From: an uncultured Puniceicoccaceae bacterium
GTDB lineage: Bacteria > Verrucomicrobiota > Verrucomicrobiia > Opitutales > Oceanipulchritudinaceae
Direction of reading: 5' to 3'
NCBI GenBank assembly: GCA_963933835.1
Contig: CAWVVV010000002.1
Location: forward strand, 64,001 to 128,000
DNA length: 64,000 nt
The translations under genes were made by a program, and so were the position numbers. The first letter of the stretch is position 1, and each line of letters starts with the position of its first letter. This document shows positions 34,238 to 50,142 of this stretch, in pieces. The notes below the pieces were generated by a model. That model was not told the DNA's origin, made no database searches, and saw nothing but the letters and a program-made list of their open reading frames with translations.

Positions 34238-37200
34238 ATGTCGACCACCGCTCCAACACACATCCGCCTCCGCGGCGTTCGCCAGAACAACCTCAAGAAC
34301 TTCGACCTCGATCTCCCTCTCGGGAAGCTCGTTGTCGTGACAGGGCTCTCGGGTGCAGGAAAGTCTTCCCTCGTTTTCGAGACCCTCCACGCCGAGGGAC
34401 AGCGGCGCTACGTCGAGACGTTCTCTCCCTACGCCCGTCAGTTTATGGACATGCTCGACCGGCCTCAGGTCGACTCGATTGAGAACATTCGCCCCTCCAT
34501 CGCGATCGAGCAAAGCAACACCGTTCGCACCTCCCGCTCCACCGTCGGCACGATGACCGAGCTGACCGACTACTACAAAGTCTGGTTCAGCCACGTCGCT
34601 GAACTCTTCGACCCTGAGACCGGCGAAAAAATAGAAGACGACAACCCTGCCTCGATCTGGACCAAGGCCCGCATAGCTTTCCCGAGCAAAGGCGTCCTCC
34701 TCGCCTTTCGCCTCAAGCGCCCAGAAAAAATGTCATGGGCCGAGCTCCTTGAGCCCCTTTCCAATCAAGGCTACAGCCGCATCGTCGCAGCGGAAAAACT
34801 AGCCCGCCTCGATGGCCTCGACCCCGCCAGCCTCGCCGCTGAGGGCAGCATTTTCGTCATCCAGGATCGTCTCAAGCTGACTCCGAAGAACCGCACCCGC
34901 TTCATCGAAGCTGCGACCGCGTCACTGCATTTCGGACAAGGTCAGATCTATCTACTGAGCGCAAACGGCGCCGAGACCCTCGACCACTACGCCGAAGGCC
35001 TCCACCTGCCCGGCAGCGATGTGCGTTACGAGCCCGCCACGCCGAACCTCTTTTCCTTCAACTCCCCAGTGGGTGCTTGCTCCGCCTGCCGCGGCTTTGG
35101 TCGTGTAATAGAAATCGACGACAATCTCGTCATTCCTGACCGCAGCCTCAGTCTCGTCGACGGCGCTATCCGAGCCTTCCAAGGGGCGGTCTATTCAGAA
35201 AGCCTACGCGACCTGCTTCGCGCCTGTAAGAAGCACAACATACCGACCGATATCCCTTTCGGAAAAATGCGGAAGGCCCATCAGCGCTTCGTCTATGATG
35301 GAGAGCCCGGCTACGATACGGACAAATCGAAAAAATGGCCGAAGGGCTGGTATGGCGTTCGCCGCTTTTTCAAGTGGCTCGAAAACAACACCTACAAGAT
35401 GCACGTCCGCGTCTTTCTCTCAAAGTACCGCGCCTACGTTTCATGCCCTGAATGCAAAGGAACGCGGCTCAAACCCGACGCCCTCAACTGGCGCTGGAAG
35501 GGCCACCGCCTCCCCGATCTCTACGAACTCCCTGTCCGCGATCTCCTCGCCCTCTTCGAAGCTGAAAAATCGGTCGAAGATACCACCGACCGAGGTCTTG
35601 CCGTCGCCACCGGCGCCATCCGCTCCCGTCTCCATTACCTCGATCAAGTCGGCCTTGGCTACCTCACCCTCAATCGCAGCTCACGCACGCTTTCCGGTGG
35701 CGAAACCCAACGCGTCAATCTCACCGCCTGCCTTGGCACCGCGCTCGTCGACACCCTCTTCGTTCTTGATGAGCCCTCTGTTGGCCTCCACGCCCGTGAC
35801 ATCAATCGCCTCATCGGCATTCTCCGCCAACTCACTGCTGCCGGAAATACCGTCGTCGTCGTCGAGCACGATGAATCAGTCATGCACGCCGCTGACGAAA
35901 TCCTCGAAATCGGCCCGCGACCTGGGAACGAGGGCGGCGAAATCATTTTTCAAGGGCCCGTCAGCAAAATGCTCAAAAACAAGGCCTCGCTCACCGGTGC
36001 CTACCTCAGCGGTCGCGAGCAGATTGAGCTCCCATCACAACGGCGCCCGGTCAAACTGAAGGGACGAAACGCTACCCCAGCGCTTAATTTCAAAGACGTC
36101 CACAAACACAATCTTACAGGCATCGACCTGCATTTTCCACTCGGACGCTTCGTCGCTCTCAGTGGAGTCAGCGGCTCTGGAAAATCCACTGTCCTGAACA
36201 ACGTCATCCACCAAGGCCTCCTCGCCCGTGCCGGAAAAGCGGTCGAAGAACCCGCCCGTATCGGGAAAATCACTACACCCAATGAAATTGGGGAAATCGT
36301 TCTCGTCGACCGAACTCCGGTGAGTAAGACACCGCGCTCGACACCCATTCTGTTTGTGGATGCGTGGGATCACATCAGGACTCTCTTCGCTTCGACCGAG
36401 GACGCACTCGCCGCCGGACTTATCACGAGCCATTTTTCCTTCAATAGTGGCCATGGTCGTTGCGATCATTGCCAAGGCCTCGGGCACGAGCGCATCGAAA
36501 TGCAGTTCATGGCCGACGTCTACGTCACTTGCCCCGTCTGCGAAGGAAAGCGCTTTCGTGACGAAGTTCTCGAGATCACATGGAACGGCAAAAATGCCGC
36601 TGACGTGCTAGCCTTCTCAGTCGACGAAGCCATCCTCTTTTTCGCCAAGCAAACCAAGATCATCGCGTGCATACGGCCATTGACCGACGTTGGCCTGAGC
36701 TACCTGCCACTGGGTCAGCCACTGAACACGCTCTCGGGTGGTGAATCCCAGCGCCTCAAACTCGTGAAGTTCCTCGGGCGCTTTGCCGGCGAAAGCGAGC
36801 CTGCCCTGCTTCTCCTCGATGAGCCCACCACCGGCTTACACCGCGCCGACATTAAGCGGCTCCTCGTCGTTCTCCAGCGACTCGTCGACGCAGGTCATTC
36901 CCTCGCTGTCATCGAACACCAGATGGATGTGCTCAAATCCGCCGACTGGATCATTGAGCTCGGCCCCGAAGCAGGTGACCGCGGCGGCGAGGTCGTTTAT
37001 GCCGGAACACCCGAAGGCATTCTCGACGTAGATACAGAAACGGCACGCTTCCTCAGTGAAGAACTGGGAGGAGGCTCCCTCGCAGTCGCTGAACCGCAGT
37101 CACCATTCATCACTCAACATGCATCCTTTGGACGCAAAGCGGCGCTCAGCGTCATCGGCGCCCGGCAACACAACCTGCGCGACATTTCAGTTGATATCCC

Positions 37201-39820
37201 CCACGGCGAATGGACCGTCGTCACCGGAGTCAGTGGCTCTGGAAAGTCCTCTCTCGCCTTCGACATTATTTTTGCCGAGGGGCAACGACGCTTCATGGAG
37301 TCGATGTCTCCGTGGGCGCGTCAATACGTCGAGCAGCTTCCTCGGCCCGACATCGACTCGCTCACCGGGATCGCCCCCACGGTCGCGATCGAGCAACGGG
37401 TAACACGGGGAAGTCGCAAGTCCACCGTAGCGACGATCACCGAGGTCGCCCAATACCTTCGTCTCCTCTACACGCGCATCGGGATACAGCATAGCCCGAA
37501 AACGGGCGAGCCCCTCATCGCCCTCAGTCGTTCCGCCCTACTCAAAAAACTCGAAAGCACAATCGGTGAACGTTCACCTAAGAAGGGCGAGATGCTTTAC
37601 CTCTACGCCCCGCTCATCCGCGGGCGCAAAGGCCACCATCAGCCTATTGCGGACTGGGCTAAAAATATCGGCTACGATCTTTTGCGCTGTGATGGGCGCC
37701 CCGTCCGCGTCACAAAATTCAAGAAGCTCGACCGCTACAGTGAGCACGATGTAGAAGTCGCGGTCGGCGCTCTCCAAATTGAAAAAGAAGGAAGCGCCTA
37801 CAGTGCTACCCTGCGCGGCGAAGGCATCAGCCTTTCGAAGCTCCTCGACGAGACCCTGCGCCTCGGCAAAGGGGCCGCCTTTCTCGCTGATGCTCAAGGG
37901 CGAAACATCGCATGGTATTCGACGAAGCGGACCGACCCCACAACCGGAGAATCGTTTCCCGAACTTGATCCAAAGCACTTTTCTTGGAACAGCACTCGAG
38001 GCTGGTGCACAAGCTGTCGCGGCCATGGCCAACTCCATCAATGGATGCTTGATGACGAAAAGTTTGAGAATCTCCCTCTCGATTTCGTTGATGGTAAGAC
38101 TTGCACTGTCTGTAAAGGCAGTCGACTGAATCCACAGTCGAGTGCAGTGTATTTACATTGTCACGACGGCACCCAACTCAGCCTTCCACAGCTTCTCGGT
38201 CTAGCGCCATCTGCCCTTCTCAAAACACTTTCCAAGCTCAAGCTCGACCGGCGCGGCAAAGCGATCGTCAAGGATCTGCGCCCCGAAATTGAAGAGCGCC
38301 TCAAATTCATGGATGAGGTTGGCCTGAGCTACCTCACCCTCGACCGATCAACCATCACCCTCTCTGGCGGTGAAGCGCAACGCATCCGGCTTGCCGCCCA
38401 ACTTGGATCAAATCTATCGGGCGTTCTCTACGTCCTCGATGAGCCTTCAATTGGGCTCCACGCCCGCGACAACGACCGCCTGCTCGACTCTCTCGCCCGT
38501 CTTCAGAAGAAAGGAAATACGCTTCTCGTTGTTGAGCATAATCTAGAAACGATGCGGCATGCTGATCGCATCATCGACCTTGGCCCTGATGCCGGGATCA
38601 ATGGTGGGCATATTCTTGCGAATGGGAAACTCGAAGCGCTCATTCAGAATAAAGACTCCCTTACCGGACACTATCTCAAAAATGGTATCCAACATCCACT
38701 ACGCGGCCAGTATCGGACGCTTCCACCCAAATACAGCGCTCGGCGCAAAACCACTGCCGACGAGTGGATCGTCCTGAAGGAGCCTCGCCTGCGCAACCTT
38801 AAGGGCGGACAGCTCACCCTTCCTAAGGAACGCCTGATCGGTATCTGTGGCGTATCCGGCGCAGGTAAGTCCACCCTCATCCGCGATCTTCTCATTCCTG
38901 TCGTCGAGCGCGCCATCCGTTTAAAGAAAGACATCGTCAAAGGGAGTGCATGGCCGGGTCTCGACTTTGGTGAGCTACGACACGCCAACGTTTTCCGAAC
39001 CGTCGTCGAAGTTGACCAAAGCCCGATCGGCAAAACACTTCGCTCTACACCAGCAACCTACATCGGAGCCTTTGATCTGATCCGGAAGTTCTTCGGCCAG
39101 ATCCCTGAGGCAAAGATGCGCGGCTTTGGTCCCGGCACCTTTTCTTTCAACACCAAAGACGGACGCTGCCCAGAGTGTAAAGGGGCCGGAAAAATTAAGC
39201 TCGAGATGAGTTTCATGCCCGACACCTATGTCGAGTGTGACGCTTGCAGAGGAAAACGCTACGGAGCTGAATTGCTCGACTTGACTTGGAACGAAAAGAA
39301 CATCGCTGACATCCTCGCAATGAGCTTTGAAGAGGCGGTCGGGTTCTTCCACTTCCATACCCGCTTGGAGGCCATGATGCAGCTCATGGTTGAAACCGGG
39401 CTCGGCTACTTGGAGCTTGGGCAAAGCAGCCCTACGCTCTCCGGCGGTGAGGCTCAGCGCCTCAAACTCGTGAGTGAGCTGATCAAAGGCCTGCCTACCT
39501 TTACCGAGCGAAAGCACGGTATCGTATCCAAAAATCTATACGTTCTCGAAGAACCCACGATCGGCCTACATCTGCGCGACTGTGAACGCCTCATCGAACT
39601 CCTTCACCGTCTCGTCGACCAAGGGCACACCGTCATCCTTATCGAACACCATCTCGACCTCATTGCCGAAGCCGATTACCTCGTCGAAATCGGACCGAAT
39701 GGCGGCGATGGTGGCGGCAAGATACTGTATCAAGGAAGTGTAGACGGACTTTTAAAAGCCAAGAGTTCACCCACAGCACCGTTTCTACGACCACTCCTGT
39801 CTCGAACAGGAAAGAGCTGA
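34238..39820 (+). CDS. uvrA: Double-length excinuclease ABC subunit A
   Basis: 1860 aa with four Walker A motifs ([16 protein letters not shown] x2, GVSGAGKS), four LSGGE signatures and CxxCxGxG Zn fingers. Confidence 0.95.
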
Positions 39821-42510: not shown

Positions 42511-44647
42511 ACCCCTGTCCCTCTTTCCACACCTCAATTACCTTTAGAAAGGTCGGTCCGACGGTCTTTGCTTTGCCTGGGCCGATGCCAGGAAGGAGCT
42601 GGGCCTCGGCTTTTGTTTTAGGCCGGTTAATCGCGAGTGCTTCGAGGGAGCGGTTGGTTAGAATCGTGTAGGCGGGCACGTTGCCACGGGCTTTCGCGAG
42701 CTGGGCACGTTTGCCCTTCAGGGCATCGATCAGGCTCTTGTCGATATCGCCATCGAACTGAAACGCCTTGCGACTGCTGGAACGGGTGCTTTTGGGGGCC
42801 TTCTTCCCGCGTGGCTCTACAGGCCAGACGAGCTCGGGCTTTAACTTTCCAAACATGACCGCCCCACCCATTGTTGTGAGGGTGACCATTGGACGGTTTC
42901 CGCCCGTTGTCATAACAAACCCAGCACGCAAGCAGGCGTCATACAGCTCCCTGATAAAGGCAAGTCCCTCCGGAGAAAGAATCCCGTAGGTCGAAAGTTT
43001 ATTGAGTCCAAATTGCGCCATTTTCTGGTCCGTGCTGCCGGCCAACATCTGTAGGATAAGGCCTTTGCCAAAGCGAGGCACCCAATCCTCACCGCTGCGC
43101 TCACTCATGCGCGCAATGCCACTCAGCAGCTTGCGCGCAGTCTGCGTCTCGGCGTCGGTCAAGACCCGCACCTTTACGTCGGTCGTTGCCCTGCACTCAT
43201 CGCAATGATGACAGGGCTCTGGATCTTCTTCACCAAAGTAGCGACGTATCCAGATTTGACGACATTCGAGCGCCCCTGAAAAAGCGATCATGGAGTCAAG
43301 TTTACTTCGATCGCGTCGCTCTTTTTCATTTAAAGCGGCTTCATCGAGCGCGAGTTTAAAGGGCAATATTTCCGGCTTTACGAGGCGAGTGCCACGCATG
43401 CGCTCACCAGGGATGTCGAAGCGCTCCAGAACCCCGAGATCACTCAAGGTTTTGAGCGCCGCGCCCACCGCCATGCCATTCTTGCTCCCAACCGCCTCGC
43501 TTAGATCCTGAATCGTAAGGCGCACTTCTTTGGCTTCATCGGCTATTTCGAGGAGCTGGCCATAAACACTGCGGATGAATTCCGGTGTCGGGTTTGCCCC
43601 ATCGATGAAGAAATCCTGCGTCCGGCGATCGGCGTAGTTATAAAATAAGACACACTTCGAAGGCAGACCATCGCGGCCCGCGCGGCCCGCTTCTTGATAA
43701 AATGCTTCCACGCTCCCAGGCAGCTCGAAGTGAGCGACAAACCGTAGATCCGCTCGATCGATACCCATCCCAAAGGCATTTGTAGCGACGGCGACATCAA
43801 CGCGCTTCGAGATGAATTGGTTCTGCAGATCTTCCCGCTGCTCATCACCCAGTCCTCCATGATAAGCGACATGAGAGACGTCCCACTCAGCCAGATGTTT
43901 CGAGACCTCCTCCACCCGCTTGCGCGTCGCACAGTAAATGATGCCGGTTTTTTGCTGTCCAATCAGGCGACTCAACTGGGCAAACTTATCTGCCCTCTTC
44001 GCCACATCGCGCACTTCGAAATTCAGATTCGGGCGCCCAAATCCACTGATAAAGATCGCGGGGTCCTTCAGGTCGAGAAAGCGTTTGATATCCTCCTGTA
44101 CCTCGGGTGTGGCCGTCGCCGTAAATGCACTCACGGGCGGGCGTCCTATCGCCTCGAGTCTCTCGCCAACACGCAGGTAATCCGGACGAAAATCATGTCC
44201 CCACTGAGATACACAGTGCGCTTCATCGACCGCGACGAAGCTGATTTTGACCCGTTTTAATTCTTCGACAAAGCGATGATGGCGAAACCGCTCAGGAGCG
44301 ACGTAAACGAGTTTATAGGCCCCATCGCGCATCCTATCGATCCGCGCGTTCTGCTCTGCGGGCGGCAGACTACTGTTGATAAAGGTCGCTGGAAGTCCGC
44401 GCGCGGTGAGGGCATCAACTTGATCCTTCATCAGCGCGATGAGTGGCGAAATGACCAGTGTCACCCCATCAAGGACGAGCGCGGGCAACTGATAGCAGAG
44501 TGATTTACCCCCGCCCGTCGGCATGATCGCCATTGTGTTACGTCCATCCGCAATCGACTGCACAATTTCCTCCTGCCCCGGCCGAAAAACCTCGAAGCCA
44601 AAATGCTCCGCCAGCGCACTGTGCAAATCTGCTGATTGAATGTTCAC
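42509..44647 (-). CDS. recQ: ATP-dependent DNA helicase RecQ (with RQC and HRDC)
   Basis: MPTGGGKSLCYQ, DEAHCVSQWGHDFRP, ATNAFGMGID, QEAGRAGRDG, CR...C..CDEC, HRDC VPAYTIL. Confidence 0.95.
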   Translation of the reverse strand: MNIQSADLHSALAEHFGFEVFRPGQEEIVQSIADGRNTMAIMPTGGGKSLCYQLPALVLDGVTLVISPLIALMKDQVDALTARGLPATFINSSLPPAEQNARIDRMRDGAYKLVYVAPERFRHHRFVEELKRVKISFVAVDEAHCVSQWGHDFRPDYLRVGERLEAIGRPPVSAFTATATPEVQEDIKRFLDLKDPAIFISGFGRPNLNFEVRDVAKRADKFAQLSRLIGQQKTGIIYCATRKRVEEVSKHLAEWDVSHVAYHGGLGDEQREDLQNQFISKRVDVAVATNAFGMGIDRADLRFVAHFELPGSVEAFYQEAGRAGRDGLPSKCVLFYNYADRRTQDFFIDGANPTPEFIRSVYGQLLEIADEAKEVRLTIQDLSEAVGSKNGMAVGAALKTLSDLGVLERFDIPGERMRGTRLVKPEILPFKLALDEAALNEKERRDRSKLDSMIAFSGALECRQIWIRRYFGEEDPEPCHHCDECRATTDVKVRVLTDAETQTARKLLSGIARMSERSGEDWVPRFGKGLILQMLAGSTDQKMAQFGLNKLSTYGILSPEGLAFIRELYDACLRAGFVMTTGGNRPMVTLTTMGGAVMFGKLKPELVWPVEPRGKKAPKSTRSSSRKAFQFDGDIDKSLIDALKGKRAQLAKARGNVPAYTILTNRSLEALAINRPKTKAEAQLLPGIGPGKAKTVGPTFLKVIEVWKEGQG

Positions 44648-44979
44648 TAATAGTAAGGAGTGCAGTCAGCTCGATGGATGCAAAACGTAAAGACGCCTTA
44701 TCGCCTTGATTGGCTCTAGGCTTCATTTTCCCAGCGGCTTTTTCATCTAAAAGTGCCTTGGTAAAGCCTAGCAATACCTCCAAGGCGGGATAACACTAGA
44801 GAAACCCTCACCATTCCAACTATTACAGCGGGGGGATGGGTCGATTTATGGAGTGAACCTTTTTGAAAGCTTCAAAGGCAAATCGAACCCCATAAAGCAT
44901 TGAGTCCTCAGCGCATGAACCCACACAACCGCCGACATCAGTATTGCACCCTTCGGACGCAGGGAATGCTTCACAGCGA

Positions 44980-47900
44980 ATGAAGTTTGATGACGAAGAG
45001 GGGTTGCTAAAGCGGATCGGGAGCGTCCTAAACGCGTTCCGGCCCGATTGTACGATCATCCGAGGCCGACACTTGACGGGTCAAAGAATCACCTTTCTTC
45101 GATGCGGAGGGACGCATCCGGTCGAAAATAGATTCTTCATCGGTAAAATCCTGAGTGAGCTCGATGAGGAGCGACCCATCGGCAAAATTCCGTTCTGGCG
45201 CCTTAGGAAAATCGCCAAGGAGGCCAAGGTTGATTTCACCCTGATCCACCTCGATCAAGCGCTCGCGTGGGCGGCCGAAACGCTCATCAAACGCGCTGGA
45301 TCCGAAGTCTTCCGAACCCCCCTTTTCCTCGAAACCGTCGTCGATCTCAGCGACGAGAAAAAGTTGCTTTCGGGGAGTAATTTGAAGCGGGACATCCAAA
45401 GGATTCAGAAAAACGCCTTCTCGATCGAGCGCACTACTGAGCCGGCAGATCTCCTGACTTTCATCCGAAAATTTCGCGATCCATATGTCGCAAAAAGACA
45501 TCCCTTGGATGCGCCCTCCTATCGCTATGATCCAGCCATCTTTACCAAGAAATCATTAGAAGGCAGCGGATTCTCCCTCCTCAAAATAATGCATGAGGGA
45601 CAATGGGTTGCAGGGGAGGTTATCGCCGATTCCTTTCAAGGGCGACCCGCCCTCTGGGAGCTAGGCGTAAAGGACGGGGATACGCATCTAGTAAGGCAAG
45701 GTGCCCTCGCCGCAGCCTATTGGCTGAGTATCGAGTTTCTGATCCAGCAAGGCGCCCAGTCCGTGTCCTTCGCTCGTATGCGCCCTTACATCAACGAAGG
45801 GGTCTTGAAATATAAATCCAAGTTCAAGCCAACGGTGACAAACAACTCATCACGGCGAGTGCTGATCGTCCCCAATCTCTCTTCGCGGATCACACGTGAT
45901 GTCCTTGTCGAAGAGCCTTTCATCATCGAAGAAGGCGGAAAACTAATCCCGCTCGGTTTCAGTAAAAGCCACTGCGTATCTGATGGACTTGAACCGCACT
46001 CCGTCGCCCTTCACCGATATAAAAATCTCGAAGCGGCTCGCCTGATAAAGTTGCCCGAAAACACCTCTACGACAAATTCAGCTCAGCCCTCCCAGCGGAC
46101 ACCCGCCTCTACCCATAGCGACTACCCGCGCGATAAATGTATCCACGATCTATTCTGCGAAAATGCTCTCCAGCACCTTGATCAGGCGGCAGTTCGATAC
46201 GAAGAGGAGATTTTAAGCTATGCGCACTTACTCGAATCCTCTGAGCGCTTAGCTCAAAATCTCCGCCAGAACGGAATCGGCAATTCCGATGTCGTAGCTG
46301 TCTGTGCAGATCGCTCGCTCCATTTGCCGACATGGGTTCTCGGTGTCCTCCGAAGTGGTGCGGCCTATTTGCCCCTCGATCCGGCACTGCCAAGCGAGCG
46401 CTTACAATTCATGCTCAAGGATGCGGGTGCACGTGCACTCATCGTTGATGAAAAAACCAAAGAGCTTTTCAAGGGGGCCACGCTCCCTTGCCCATTAATC
46501 GTGGGTTCCAAAGCTATCTCAAGAGAGTCAAACTCCGACGCGTCGGTGCTTCCAAACGACACCACTTCGTCTGACCTTGCCTATATCATTTACACCTCTG
46601 GATCAACTGGGCTCCCCAAAGGAGTCGAGATCGAACACCGCAACATCGTTAACTTAGTATGGGACATGAAAGAACGCTTAGGCCTCCGTCAGAAGGAGAG
46701 CGTTCTCTCCATCGGATCCTTCGCCTTTGATGTCACTCTGCCCGATTGGTTTTGGGCGTTCCTTACCGGAGGAACCGTCATCATTGCCGATGAACAATCA
46801 ATTAAGGACCCAGCGCGCCTTGTCCCATTGATTTCCAAACATCGACCGACTCACATCCAAGCGACACCCGGCACGTGGGAAATGCTTCTAAAAGTCGGAT
46901 TGCCAAGCTACCGACCACTGCGACTCGTAACGACAGGAGAACATGTCGGCGAAGCCCTACGGGAACGCCTCCGGAATCTTTCAGATGAAGTGTGGAACCT
47001 CTACGGCCCGACTGAAACGACGGTCTGGTCTTCAGCTTGCCACCTCGGCCACGACCACTCGGCCGAATCAATCGGAACCCCGATTGCCAACACGCAGTTC
47101 CACATCGTCGGCGACAATGGCCAACCCGCATCTGATAACGAGCGAGGCGAATTATGGATTGGCGGTGAAGGCGTCGCTCGAGGTTATCTAAGCCGTATCG
47201 AATTAACCGATGAGCGCTTCGTCACTCCCGATTGGGCACCCGGGCGACTCTACAGAACGGGCGATCTCGTCGAATGGAATCCCGAAGGCGGTGTCCGCTA
47301 CCTTGGCCGAATTGATGACCAAGTAAAAATCCGAGGCTACCGCATCGAACTCGGAGAAATCGACGCAAAGCTTTCTGAGCACTCCGATGTGCAAGTCAGC
47401 CAAACGCTATTGGTCGAAGGAGAACACAGCCCCCGCCTCGTCAGCTTTGTTGTCCCAAAAAGTAACGACACTGACCCGAAGGATTGGAAAACGTTTCTTC
47501 TTAGCGAGCTCCCAGCCTACATGGTGCCGGCCCGCTTCATCCCACTCAAAGCGCTGCCACTCACTCCGAACGGAAAGATCGATCGCAAAGCGCTCCAAGC
47601 ACACCTGAAAACAACCCCTGACGGCTCGGTGAAAACGAAACTGAACGCCTTAGAGCGGAAGGTCGCTAATGTTTGGAGGAGCGTACTCAAGGGGCCCCAG
47701 ATCACGTCTACGGATACGTTTTGGGATCTGGGCGGAGACTCTCTCTCGGCCGTCCATATGCTCTTGGAGTTGAAGCAACGCCTTGGACTGGAAGTCCCTT
47801 ATGAACGCCTCTCTGAGAACCCGACCCTGAGTGAGTTTTGCGCTTTCTGCACTCAGCGAAAGAAGGCACCTCAGCGGCTGCGAAGCCTCCGCTCCGGTAG

Positions 47901-48717
47901 CGACCCAGTGGCCACCCCCATCCTCTTCACCCACGGGCACAACTTCTGTAACACCATCGACGAGCTCAGCCCCGTTATACATAGCCTCGACGCTTTCCAT
48001 CCGATCTGGGGCCTGAGCGGTCATGGCGAAGACGGGCGGTGCTGGAGCTATCAGACGCTCCCCGATATGGCGGCCGAAGCACTTGAGCTTATTAAAGGTG
48101 CCCTTCCTCCCCAACGCATCATTCTTGCAGGCTACTGCATCGGTGGGCTACTGGCCTACGAACTCGCGAAACAACTATCCGAGGCAGGCTACGAGATCGA
48201 GCATGTCATCATGATCGATACGGCGACACCTGAATTGCGCAATACCTCCATCGCTGAAGGCACCCTTCAGCGTCGCCAAGAGCTCAAGGACGGCCTGCGC
48301 CACCGCTCTTTGTCCACCCTCATCGAACGCATCATCACCCGCGTGAAGTTTGAACGGAAATACTTCCAAAACTCATTTTGGCGTCATGTAGCACCTTTCT
48401 GGATACGTTTTTCACCACTCCCATCTCAAGCACGCACACCTTACTATCAATCGATCCAATCAGCCGCCTTCACCAGCTATGAACCTGGGAAACTCGATGC
48501 ACCGGTTCACCTCATAAAGACGGATCAAAACAGCTGGCCACCTGATTACGGATGGGGACCGCATTGCCCACAGATCGAAGAGAGCTTTCTCAGCGCCCCC
48601 CCCCATCACGAAATGGTCTCAAAAGAGCAAGCCCCTCGGCTTGCGAAACATATTCCCATCGTTCTAAAAGCGAACAACTTAGAACAATGCCGCCCTAATA
48701 GCGTAGTGGTGGGGTAA
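44980..48717 (+). CDS. Stand-alone NRPS-like protein: GNAT/FemAB-like - adenylation - thiolation - thioesterase
   Basis: A-domain cores YIIYTSGSTGLPKG, NLYGPTETT, YRTGD, GRIDDQVKIRGYRIELGEI, LTPNGKIDRK; T domain LGGDSL; TE LAGYCIGG...IDT...HHEM; N-terminal ~350 aa ending RPYINEGVLKYKSKF. Confidence 0.9.
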   Translation: MKFDDEEGLLKRIGSVLNAFRPDCTIIRGRHLTGQRITFLRCGGTHPVENRFFIGKILSELDEERPIGKIPFWRLRKIAKEAKVDFTLIHLDQALAWAAETLIKRAGSEVFRTPLFLETVVDLSDEKKLLSGSNLKRDIQRIQKNAFSIERTTEPADLLTFIRKFRDPYVAKRHPLDAPSYRYDPAIFTKKSLEGSGFSLLKIMHEGQWVAGEVIADSFQGRPALWELGVKDGDTHLVRQGALAAAYWLSIEFLIQQGAQSVSFARMRPYINEGVLKYKSKFKPTVTNNSSRRVLIVPNLSSRITRDVLVEEPFIIEEGGKLIPLGFSKSHCVSDGLEPHSVALHRYKNLEAARLIKLPENTSTTNSAQPSQRTPASTHSDYPRDKCIHDLFCENALQHLDQAAVRYEEEILSYAHLLESSERLAQNLRQNGIGNSDVVAVCADRSLHLPTWVLGVLRSGAAYLPLDPALPSERLQFMLKDAGARALIVDEKTKELFKGATLPCPLIVGSKAISRESNSDASVLPNDTTSSDLAYIIYTSGSTGLPKGVEIEHRNIVNLVWDMKERLGLRQKESVLSIGSFAFDVTLPDWFWAFLTGGTVIIADEQSIKDPARLVPLISKHRPTHIQATPGTWEMLLKVGLPSYRPLRLVTTGEHVGEALRERLRNLSDEVWNLYGPTETTVWSSACHLGHDHSAESIGTPIANTQFHIVGDNGQPASDNERGELWIGGEGVARGYLSRIELTDERFVTPDWAPGRLYRTGDLVEWNPEGGVRYLGRIDDQVKIRGYRIELGEIDAKLSEHSDVQVSQTLLVEGEHSPRLVSFVVPKSNDTDPKDWKTFLLSELPAYMVPARFIPLKALPLTPNGKIDRKALQAHLKTTPDGSVKTKLNALERKVANVWRSVLKGPQITSTDTFWDLGGDSLSAVHMLLELKQRLGLEVPYERLSENPTLSEFCAFCTQRKKAPQRLRSLRSGSDPVATPILFTHGHNFCNTIDELSPVIHSLDAFHPIWGLSGHGEDGRCWSYQTLPDMAAEALELIKGALPPQRIILAGYCIGGLLAYELAKQLSEAGYEIEHVIMIDTATPELRNTSIAEGTLQRRQELKDGLRHRSLSTLIERIITRVKFERKYFQNSFWRHVAPFWIRFSPLPSQARTPYYQSIQSAAFTSYEPGKLDAPVHLIKTDQNSWPPDYGWGPHCPQIEESFLSAPPHHEMVSKEQAPRLAKHIPIVLKANNLEQCRPNSVVVG

Positions 48718-48777
48718 TCTTGCTGAATGAATAGCGGTGCATCAGGTCAGGTTGTGCTCGAATACGGGCGCCATCAC

Positions 48778-50142
48778 TCAGCGGACATCGAGATCGGGCC
48801 ACTGCGCGAGTTTTCGGTGCAGGGTGCGGCGGGACATGCCGAGGAGTTTTGCGGCCTGAGTTCGGTTGCCTTTTGCCTCGACGAGGGCGTTACGCAGGAG
48901 GCGCTTTTCGTTCTCTTCGACGGAGAGCGGATTCTGAGCAAAGCTTGAATTTTCCGAACCGACCTTACCCATCGGATCGAGAAACTTGGGATCGAGATCG
49001 TACTCGGTGAGCTTTCCGCCGCGCTTCATCACGATGATGTTTTCAGCGAAGTTACGCAGCTCACGAATGTTACCCGGCCAGCGGTATTGCTCGAGGGCAT
49101 GCATCGCCTTGGCATCAAGTTCGAGCGGCTCGGTGTCATTTTCCTCGGCGTAGATGTCGATGAAGTGGCGGACGAGAAGCGGGATGTCGTCAACACGAGC
49201 GCGCAGTGGCGGCATGTCGAGGGTGACGACGTTGAGCCGATAAAGGAGATCGTCTCGAAAGGTGCCTTTCTTCGCCATATCGACGAGGTCTCGGTTCGTC
49301 GCTGCGACGAGGCGCACATCAACTTTGATCGTCTTGGTGCTGCCAAGGCGTTCGAAGCTTCGGGTCTCGAGAAAACGCAGAAGCTTCACCTGAGTGGACG
49401 CATCGATTTCGCCAATTTCATCGAGAAAGAGGGTGCCACCATCCGCCGCCTCGAAGCGACCGATGCGACGCTCATTCGCTCCCGTAAAAGCCCCACGCTC
49501 GTGTCCGAAGAGCTCGCTTTCAAGCAGACTGGCCGAAAGCGCAGCGGCGTGGACAGGCACAAATGGACCGCGATTGCGGTCACTGTTCTGGTGGATCGAC
49601 TGAGCGATGAGCTCCTTGCCCGTTCCCGTTTCTCCTTCGATAAGAACGGAGGCACGTGACGGAGCGACCCGCTTTACTTTTTCGATAACATCTTCGAGCG
49701 CCTTCGAGCCGCCAATGATACCCTCGAAGCTAAACTTGCGGTCAAGGCGCTCCTGAAGCTCAACGACGACTTTCTCGGTCGTGCGTGATCTGAGCGCACG
49801 CTGGATCAGCAGTTCCAGCTTCTCGATGTTTACCGGCTTGGTCAGAAAATCATAGGCCCCGCGCTTCATCGCTTCTACCGCGGTCTCCACGTTCCCATAG
49901 GCCGTCATCATGATGACGATGGGGGCGTGAGGCAGCGCAATGACCTTGTCGATGACCTTCATCCCGCTTTCACCGGTCATTCGAAGGTCTGTCAGGACGA
50001 TATCAAAGCGCTCAGACTCGAAGAGGTTGAAGGCCTCATCGGCGTTCGCCGCGAGGTAAACGTCATAGGTGTCTTCAAGCGCGAGATAGAGCCCTTCACG
50101 GGTGTGTTTCTCGTCGTCAACAATAAGCAAACTGGCTGGCAT
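48778..50142 (-). CDS. Sigma-54-dependent response regulator (NtrC/AtoC family)
   Basis: REC ([19 protein letters not shown]), [38 protein letters not shown], Fis HTH. Confidence 0.95.

Follow-up and report, generated by a model that had tools for sequence, protein, structure and literature searches.

A predicted FemABX-like domain in the condensation-domain position of an adenylation–thiolation–thioesterase protein from an uncultured Puniceicoccaceae bacterium

We describe a gene for a protein of 1245 aa in a 64,000-nucleotide stretch of DNA (hereafter the window) from an uncultured Puniceicoccaceae bacterium (contig CAWVVV010000002.1, positions 64,001 to 128,000). The protein joins an N-terminal domain (N-domain), predicted to adopt the Fem fold, to adenylation (A), thiolation (T) and thioesterase (TE) domains of the kind found in nonribosomal peptide synthetases (NRPS), and has no condensation (C) domain. 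The architecture is conserved in relatives, with intact catalytic residues in all four domains. We tentatively favor, at a little under an even chance, a reading in which the Fem-fold domain replaces the C domain and adds a residue from an aminoacyl-tRNA to the residue bound to T, the TE then passing the dipeptide to an acceptor in the cell envelope.

A conserved four-domain fusion

The reading frame can begin at TTG 44944 or ATG 44980; homologues P0003, P0158 and P0159 also open with MKFDDE, which favors the ATG. In a Pfam scan the protein matched AMP-binding (aa 394-737, E 1.6e-85), AMP-binding_C (793-866), PP-binding (894-956, E 5.2e-12) and Thioesterase (1025-1088), with no Condensation match anywhere in the protein and no family matched in aa 1-360. 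This confirms the layout, one open reading frame (ORF) without a C domain, that a first-pass annotation had read from the letters of the window. A tblastn search with the whole protein returned no second NRPS module in the genome of the host species (G000; 1.94 Mb, 10 contigs, 97% complete), only four weak AMP-binding matches.

That the gene could be a chimera or a deletion artefact is ruled out by contigs from two studies that span it and by the same layout in relatives, including a second readable genome with the fused gene (G905, family f22, encoding P0156; G000 and G905 are 97-98% complete). Single contigs cross the whole gene in run X1 (44499-48754), which is possibly the window's own source data, and in run X2 (44000-48921), and a contig of run X3, from the second study, bridges the junction between the N-domain and A (44480-46952). 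Across four runs, the differences listed in the gene are two substitutions and the length of a poly-C tract. Fused proteins form six clusters at 90% identity, namely this species (7 records), P0154/P0158, P0155, P0156, P0157/P0159 and P0004, a count that is a lower bound since it comes from the 7,999 best word-sharing candidates. The five further clusters have the identical four-domain layout. Their identity to the window protein ranges across clusters over 40-75% for the N-domain, 60-88% for A, 46-87% for T and 40-78% for the TE. The six fused N-domains make up one branch (SH-aLRT 100, in a quick tree of 34 rows). In a comparison of G000 with G905, the N-domain has a ratio of nonsynonymous to synonymous rates (dN/dS) of 0.19 and A one of 0.10; for T and TE, dS is saturated and dN is 0.18 and 0.24, respectively. 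Judged by these substitution rates, all domains are under purifying selection. The fusion is real and conserved, and its family is small. Two records, P0003 and P0157, each come from a contig of 3,742 bases and correspond to the initial and central portions of the fused protein; they probably derive from a single copy of the P0159 gene that was broken or mis-assembled.

The distribution of the fused gene is patchy. It was not found in any of the 36 other genomes of the host's family that were searched, which rules out a role as a stand-in for MurC/MurD; no further copy was found in 400 genomes of the order, in 400 of the phylum or in 46 of family f3, and in family f22 it occurred in 1/401 genomes (G905). 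Plasmids and viral contigs gave no match to the gene, and an A-motif scan of metagenomes returned no species besides this one. The window DNA occurs in marine metagenomes, with no RNA dataset among its listed holders.

As the first-pass annotation stated, the gene sits between recQ and an NtrC-type regulator; recQ is divergent, and the regulator, a sigma-54 response regulator, is convergent. A functional tie to either is ruled out, as orthologues in five relatives and the G905 gene have different neighbours. The G905 gene is flanked by HD hydrolases, GH43, a methylguanine methyltransferase and a dehydrogenase, unrelated to the flanks in the window, and because no flanking gene is common to the two genomes the fused gene looks self-contained. 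Stand-alone relatives of the N-domain beside recQ in three other genomes (G342, G880, G1094) were treated as coincidence, since the RecQ is a different one (42-45% identical versus 66% for the orthologue). Upstream of the gene we found no sigma-70 site and no informative repeats. Elsewhere in the window, positions 34238-39820 hold a UvrA-like ORF of double length (1860 aa), recognised by eye.

The N-terminal domain and its likely donor

All the sequence motifs that the first-pass annotation quoted are present. The GNAT/FemAB-like fold that it proposed for the N-domain is supported by Acetyltransf_6 matches in homologues, by structure comparison and by an AlphaFold2 model (predicted local distance difference test 92.8, predicted template-modeling score 0.89) built from an alignment of 136 rows. 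In Foldseek, the listed matches down to rank 23 were all MprF/aaPGS, Sba18/Sbb17 or FemX, with a best E of 9.6e-9. By VIA-align, Z was 13.5 for FemX 6SNR (253 residues aligned, root-mean-square deviation (rmsd) 9.2, aa 8-310), 13.2 for Sbb17, 13.1 for FemXWv, 12.4 for FemA and 11.8 for MprF. On the strength of these models, the N-domain is predicted to be a tandem GNAT nearest to FemX, Sbb17/Sba18 and MprF. Among sequence families, the N-domain of the window has no match to Acetyltransf_6 (PF13480, gathering cut-off 22 bits); 14 of 26 stand-alone homologues matched it at E<=0.05, nine of them at or above the cut-off, and the fused proteins P0004 and P0155 scored 19.2 and 16.3 bits. NCBIfam holds no model of the N-domain family, and a search of the PDB with the N-domain sequence (phmmer) or profile gave nothing significant.

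Aminoacyl-tRNA transferases are marked by a basic helix and a catalytic Lys (PMC9351520, PMC12945691, PMC6103681). The putative tRNA-binding helix has a family median net charge of +3 with five K/R and is among the two most basic 13-mer regions of the alignment; in the fused proteins its net charge is +1 to +4. Lys279 is found in 135/136 rows and Tyr or Phe precedes it in 128/136, and both hallmarks are present in all six fused proteins. The N-domain profile aligns the hallmarks to a FemAB-type protein (L011, E 7e-13), and that protein in turn aligns to FemX and Sbb17/Sba18. In predicted fold, basic helix and aromatic-Lys pair, the N-domain thus resembles the FemABX/MprF/Ate1/PacB class, and the hallmark residues suggest that its donor would be an aminoacyl-tRNA.

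The first-pass annotation had allowed for acylation as well as aminoacylation of the T-bound residue. The second of these stands as our best reading. The first lost ground, as the pattern [QR]xxGx[GA], motif A of acyl-CoA-dependent GNATs, occurs in 3/136 rows (aa 231-251) and the tRNA hallmarks are kept. An N-domain that caps the T-bound residue from acyl-CoA or acyl-acyl carrier protein, to give an N-acyl amino acid, is therefore very improbable in our view, even though acyl-CoA tandem GNATs do match the model (MshD best, with Z 10.9 and rmsd 5.5; VipF, Z 10.7), PaaK-like acyl-CoA ligases are the commonest neighbours of stand-alone relatives, and the formyltransferase of the LgrA F-A-T unit is a known analogue (PMC10510592).

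Table 1. Coordinates of the fused gene, its domains and key residues, and of related loci discussed in the text.
Feature	Position	Strand	Basis or remark
Fem-fold GNAT-A-T-TE(Cys) gene, 1245 aa	44980..48717	+	one ORF; start backed by homologues
N-domain (aa 1-358), with a predicted tandem GNAT fold like that of FemABX/MprF	44980..46053	+	model, structure and family searches
Basic helix, aa 134-146, NLKRDIQRIQKNA, at the tRNA-binding-helix position of Fem/MprF/Ate1 enzymes	45379..45417	+	model helix 133-144; alignment via L011
Tyr278-Lys279, putative counterpart of FemX Phe304-Lys305	45811..45816	+	conservation and two-step alignment to S. aureus FemX FK
A domain, aa 381-875, code D-V-P-Q-V-T-L-V-W-K, glycine clade with L239P and G301T	46120..47604	+	
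T domain, aa 890-958, Ser921 in GGDSL at 47740-47742	47647..47853	+	
TE domain, aa 975-1230, triad Cys1053-Asp1080-His1209, basic and aromatic lid	47902..48669	+	
Poly-C tract, C9 in the window (one C fewer or more elsewhere), whose last base opens the His1209 codon	48596..48604	+	
A-T-TE genes neighbouring stand-alone members	L040:5050-7554; L085:1-1635; L183:10941-13577; L189:3039-5690		two phyla
AcpS loci	G000:C6:30001-30276 (L014); G905:C16:62441-62719 (L192)		PPTase profile search

The proposed cycle, its genomic context and its rivals

The A domain scored 403.8 bits against TIGR01733 (cut-off 317.4). Its Asp584 and Lys866, equivalent to Asp235 and Lys517, are kept in all six fused proteins, and the pocket code is identical in the seven fused sequences aligned. 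The 115 nearest non-fused proteins supplied 231 A-domain alignments, among which DILQLG[ML]VW codes were the most frequent, and we take DILQLG(L/M)(I/V)WK to be a glycine code; Pro239 occurs in 7/231 and Thr301 in 9/231 of these related domains. The best pocket matches in the PDB were 5U89, 8WWW and AB3403, the last of which was solved with glycine (PMC10510592). The code suggests that the substrate is likely small, probably glycine or alanine. Because Asp235 is kept, an alpha-amino acid is expected, and the T-bound residue would carry a free alpha-amine. Thr301 may lie at the position of DltA Cys269, a resemblance by which the A domain might prefer D-alanine. In DltA, Cys269 is a stereo-determinant (PMC4176424).

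The carrier serine, Ser921, is kept in all six fused proteins, whose T domains are mildly acidic (net charge -2 to -5). The TE has a Cys nucleophile (GYCIGG), a feature that had escaped the first-pass annotation, and its triad is complete in 6/6 fused proteins. Its lid is aromatic as well as strongly basic, with a net charge of +7 to +16 in the fused proteins versus +3 and +5 in two control TEs. Cys TEs are the rarer kind, and in ObiF1 the Cys favors non-hydrolytic release (PMC6668435). The best A-T-TE match in the 400 phylum genomes (G244, L142:11806-15466; 35-36% identity) is likewise C-less, combines a glycine code with a Cys TE, and sits in an exosortase/sugar-nucleotide locus beside an Sfp-type phosphopantetheinyl transferase (PPTase). 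The Cys nucleophile, the basic lid and the context of this nearest relative point to a TE that carries out transfer rather than hydrolysis.

In the cycle that we favor, A would load a small amino acid, likely glycine or alanine, onto T; the N-domain, standing in the position of a C domain, would extend the T-bound residue at its amine with a residue drawn from a host aminoacyl-tRNA; and the Cys TE would hand the dipeptide to a sugar or lipid of the cell envelope or, in a variant of this last step, release it as a free linear or cyclic dipeptide. That the T-bound residue is the acceptor of the N-domain is suggested by its place in the fusion and, by analogy, by the precedent of PacB, which acts in trans. 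This reading uses each conserved feature once, and as a linear cycle of loading, extension and release needs an intact TE, the complete triad in all six fused proteins supports it.

An envelope sugar or lipid is the likely final acceptor, on the evidence of the basic TE lid, the exosortase context of G244 and the loci of stand-alone relatives. These relatives define an unnamed family of more than 1,100 proteins that, from sequence searches, are mostly stand-alone and of about 380 aa: 1,104 matched at E<=0.001 among 50% representatives, and 134 of the best 150 are 300-450 aa long. In the ESM Atlas they fall into unnamed clusters (15-36% Acetyltransf_6, score 0.96-0.97). Scanning GTDB for a motif yielded 115 stretches, of which 80 had flanks. 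Our sample of 76 loci consists of L015-L093, after removal of three duplicates and two non-members, together with L009 and L010; selected by one motif, the loci are not independent draws. Recurrent neighbours were a PaaK/F390-like ligase (13 loci), GT4 (10) and GT2 (9) glycosyltransferases, a DegT aminotransferase (8), an unnamed 350-aa protein (7), a hexapeptide acetyltransferase (7), an epimerase, a GNAT and an asparagine-synthase-like protein (6 each) and a TupA ATP-grasp protein (5). A polysaccharide-type neighbour was present in 33/76 loci.

Several observations weigh against the favored cycle. The N-domain is only remotely similar to its structural matches (10-16% identity, rmsd 7-13 A), with a Z for FemX no more than about 2.6 above that for acyl-CoA tandem GNATs. 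The equivalence of Lys279 depends on a two-step alignment whose weak step has a whole-sequence E of 0.00029 and an E of 0.29 for the stretch itself. Five of the ten code positions in the window protein differ from the glycine code. The stand-alone loci come from distant relatives, only 20-30% identical, with the closest stand-alone clade (P0005-P0011, P0015) outside the sample, and 43/76 have no recurrent polysaccharide gene. A carboxylate-activating ligase lies beside stand-alone members in 26/76 loci (a PaaK-like one adjacent and co-oriented in six), the same domain is fused to a PaaK-like ligase, plus a GNAT, in P0121, and in four loci of two phyla (L040, L085, L183, L189) an A-T-TE gene accompanies a stand-alone member, with Asp235 absent in the three readable pockets. 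In the host species itself, the TE His is lost in five of seven protein records (the frame is intact in two, shifted in one direction in three and in the opposite direction in two), and no Sfp/EntD-type PPTase was found in G000 (one PF01648 match, which is AcpS; none for PF22624 or PF17837); a PPTase search of G905 gave one short match, AcpS-type, and none for PF22624.

The ligase neighbours, the P0121 fusion and the A-T-TE neighbours without Asp235 agree with a thioester donor, or with an external acceptor, no less than with the favored cycle. In the first case, the aminoacyl group on T would be the donor, and the Fem-fold domain would move it to an amino sugar, a lipid-linked glycan or a lipid, leaving the TE to edit or to perform a second transfer. 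The mildly acidic T domains are consistent with this, and in LysX an activating enzyme is fused to a transferase (PMC6103681). However, the fused proteins retain the basic helix at the level of the family, a full and conserved TE would be surplus, and the four split A-T-TE cases do not establish coupling, since the two genes converge, diverge or have another gene between them; the TEs of all four have Ser. In addition, the accessible part of PMC12945691 section 7 mentions no carrier-protein donor for a Fem-fold enzyme. A complex prediction of the N-domain with T, with a median of 0.07 (runs 0.32, 0.07 and 0.01), speaks neither for nor against a contact between the two. We hold a T-bound donor to be rather unlikely but a live rival. 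It is the form in which the Dlt-like, one-protein system of the first-pass annotation survives, although the protein has no transmembrane segment (maximum 19-residue hydropathy 1.28) and there is no MBOAT, DltD or flippase in it or among its neighbours.

In the second case, two transferases would serve one external acceptor: A-T-TE would put the glycine-like residue on an envelope precursor, and the Fem-fold domain, which would not act on T, would then attach a residue from tRNA to this product or to a different amine of it. Each half exists alone in polysaccharide loci, as the stand-alone relatives and the C-less A-T-TE of G244 illustrate, and in L028 an NRPS with glycine code and Cys TE, a GT2 gene and three stand-alone copies stand in one gene run. 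Free small acceptors are used by FemX, Orf11 and DhpH (PMC12945691). This leaves unexplained why the Fem-fold domain occupies exactly the position of a C domain, and neither G000 nor G905 has an acceptor-making gene accompanying the fused gene; we regard it as distinctly unlikely. In its boldest form, the thioester idea would extend to the whole family of more than 1,100 proteins, switched from aminoacyl-tRNA to (amino)acyl thioesters on T or CoA, with the fused protein as a one-gene, AcpS-primed and phase-variable system of envelope aminoacylation. Such a switch of donor would explain the repeated pairing and fusion of the family with adenylating enzymes, and we consider it doubtful.

A further rival concerns this species alone, whose copy of an otherwise real family might be unprimed or decaying. 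The poly-C tract, also missed by the first-pass annotation, has one C fewer in runs X1 and X5 and one more in run X2; these runs, which overlap the protein records, are the three with a contig across the tract, and all three have the TE frameshift, by which His1209 is lost. The in-frame allele carries one Pro more than five relatives, and the G905 gene has no such tract. Two control tracts of the genome (C10 and G9) showed no length change in a small control of two and three bridging contigs. We lean toward real variation over sequencing slippage. The tract is a candidate phase-variation switch, which would turn the TE on and off in this species, or else a candidate sign of relaxed selection or decay. 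G000 has six other C or G runs of 9-11 bases (C1:121526, 321376, 325000 and 382387; C3:140756; C4:129537), and the two of them that were compared across runs were invariant.

Regarding priming, G244 and a further genome (G398) have a longer second PPTase beside their NRPS genes, and G746, with a stand-alone A-T-TE, has no PF22624 match either. T would be primed by the host AcpS, or else the protein would be inactive; it may be that the AcpS of this order primes peptidyl carriers. The AcpS-type PPTase as the only one in a 97%-complete genome of 1.94 Mb, the frameshifts and the negative search for the gene in 36 other genomes of the family are in line with an unprimed or decaying copy. Against it stand the purifying selection on all domains with Ser921 kept in 6/6, the intact gene that G905 maintains with AcpS only, and the listed differences across four runs, which are two substitutions and the tract. 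We judge an unprimed or decaying copy to be quite improbable.

The surroundings of the stand-alone family hold other recurrent arrangements. In G398 (L144-L145, L012), NRPS and polyketide synthase genes ending in a Cys TE run into a polysaccharide cluster with a FemAB-type gene, and the decoration of polysaccharides by NRPSs may amount to a separate system. Two or more matches per locus occur in 15/76 loci (two of these being fragmented ORFs; examples are L019, L024, L028, L073 and L081), and the two to four stand-alone copies per locus can be likened to FemX, FemA and FemB adding successive residues. One module pairs a stand-alone member with the unnamed 350-aa protein (L018, L031, L038; also L034, L036, L064, L079), in three loci with an Asp/Glu/hydantoin racemase. 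Another (L049, L074, L086, L031, L017) has a MurF-like and a PaaK-like ligase, sometimes with asparagine-synthase-like, DegT and beta-keto-acid cleavage genes; among the A-T-TE loci, a PaaK-like ligase occurs in L040 as well, and a MurF-like one in L189. Besides P0121, the domain is fused in P0052, P0077, L024:1691-4081 and L078:7716-9509, with partners that include a flavin amine oxidase, a GNAT and an unnamed domain of about 330 aa that looks M29-type aminopeptidase-like by eye and has no Pfam or NCBIfam match. The sole Acetyltransf_6 match of G000, a 246-aa frame with 32.6 bits (L156, G000:C1:497754-501167), precedes a 242-aa ORF of unknown family and makes a second GNAT-fold locus.

Relation to known systems

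The first-pass annotation did not recognise this architecture as characterised, and our literature search, which did not reach subscription papers and supplements, likewise found no publication on a Fem-fold-A-T-TE fusion. The words "NRPS", "fused" and "PCP" appear nowhere in the text of a 2026 review of aminoacyl-tRNA transferases, and the accessible portions of PMC9030710, PMC8842026, PMC2922099, PMC13721732 and 10.1101/2025.01.14.632903 contain no such protein. The fusion is apparently undescribed so far. None of the three outcomes that, by the first-pass annotation, would have refuted it came about. Such genes are filed as plain A-T-TE because domain scanners miss the N-domain.

Whether tRNA or T is the donor, the protein would represent a new route to an amide on an NRPS carrier within one polypeptide. 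If tRNA is the donor, it would be a naturally occurring counterpart, in cis, of PacB chemistry, in the form of a soluble enzyme of 1245 aa in which the handover between a Fem domain and a carrier could be studied, and a possible substitute for the C domain in engineering. If T is the donor, it would be a Fem-fold enzyme working without tRNA, of which we found no description. The gene also offers a biochemical entry to the unnamed family and to the Cys-TE NRPSs of surface-polysaccharide loci.

The window protein is neither a Dlt system nor a complete canonical NRPS module. AlmEFG comprises an activating enzyme and a carrier for envelope aminoacylation. DltABCD shares that pairing with the window protein, as LysX shares the fusion of an activator to a GNAT transferase (PMC6103681). 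However, the A domain falls far below the cut-offs of the DltA models (TIGR01734, 258 of 559.85 bits; another, 258 of 476), the MBOAT, DltD and flippase parts are lacking, and the window protein has a TE. With AB3403 (4ZXH) it shares the glycine-clade A domain and the Cys TE, and with ObiF1 the Cys TE, but both of these have a C domain and an upstream carrier where the window protein has the Fem-fold domain.

Among transferases, FemX/FemABX (1NE9, 4II9, 6SNR, 1LRZ) and MprF/aaPGS (6LV0, 4V35, 4V36) are the best structural matches and have the basic helix and aromatic-Lys motif in common with the N-domain. The matched span ends near aa 310, leaving about 45 extra C-terminal residues in the window domain, and the protein has no flippase or transmembrane part and the gene no peptidoglycan context.

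PacB reportedly acts on a T-tethered peptide. Working in trans, it transfers Ala from tRNA onto an NRPS peptidyl chain, and PacB/Pac2 and NpsN (pacidamycin, napsamycin), DhpH-C, DhpK, VlmA and Orf11/Sba18/Sbb17 have the double-GNAT fold, tRNA-binding helix and catalytic Lys predicted here (PMC12945691). The likeness extends to the residue being added to an NRPS-made chain, and Sbb17/Sba18 are among the top fold matches of the N-domain, at 12-14% identity. PacB-type enzymes are listed as separate, free-standing proteins from multi-gene Streptomyces clusters, whereas the window domain is joined in cis to A-T-TE by a gene that stands alone. In the LgrA F-A-T unit, an N-terminal domain other than a C domain also precedes A and acts on the amine of a T-bound residue (PMC10510592); there it is a formyltransferase using formyl-tetrahydrofolate, with further modules following, and here it is a Fem-fold domain with direct release by the TE. 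By these analogies, the closest working analogue is PacB acting in trans with an NRPS, and the closest build is LgrA F-A-T.

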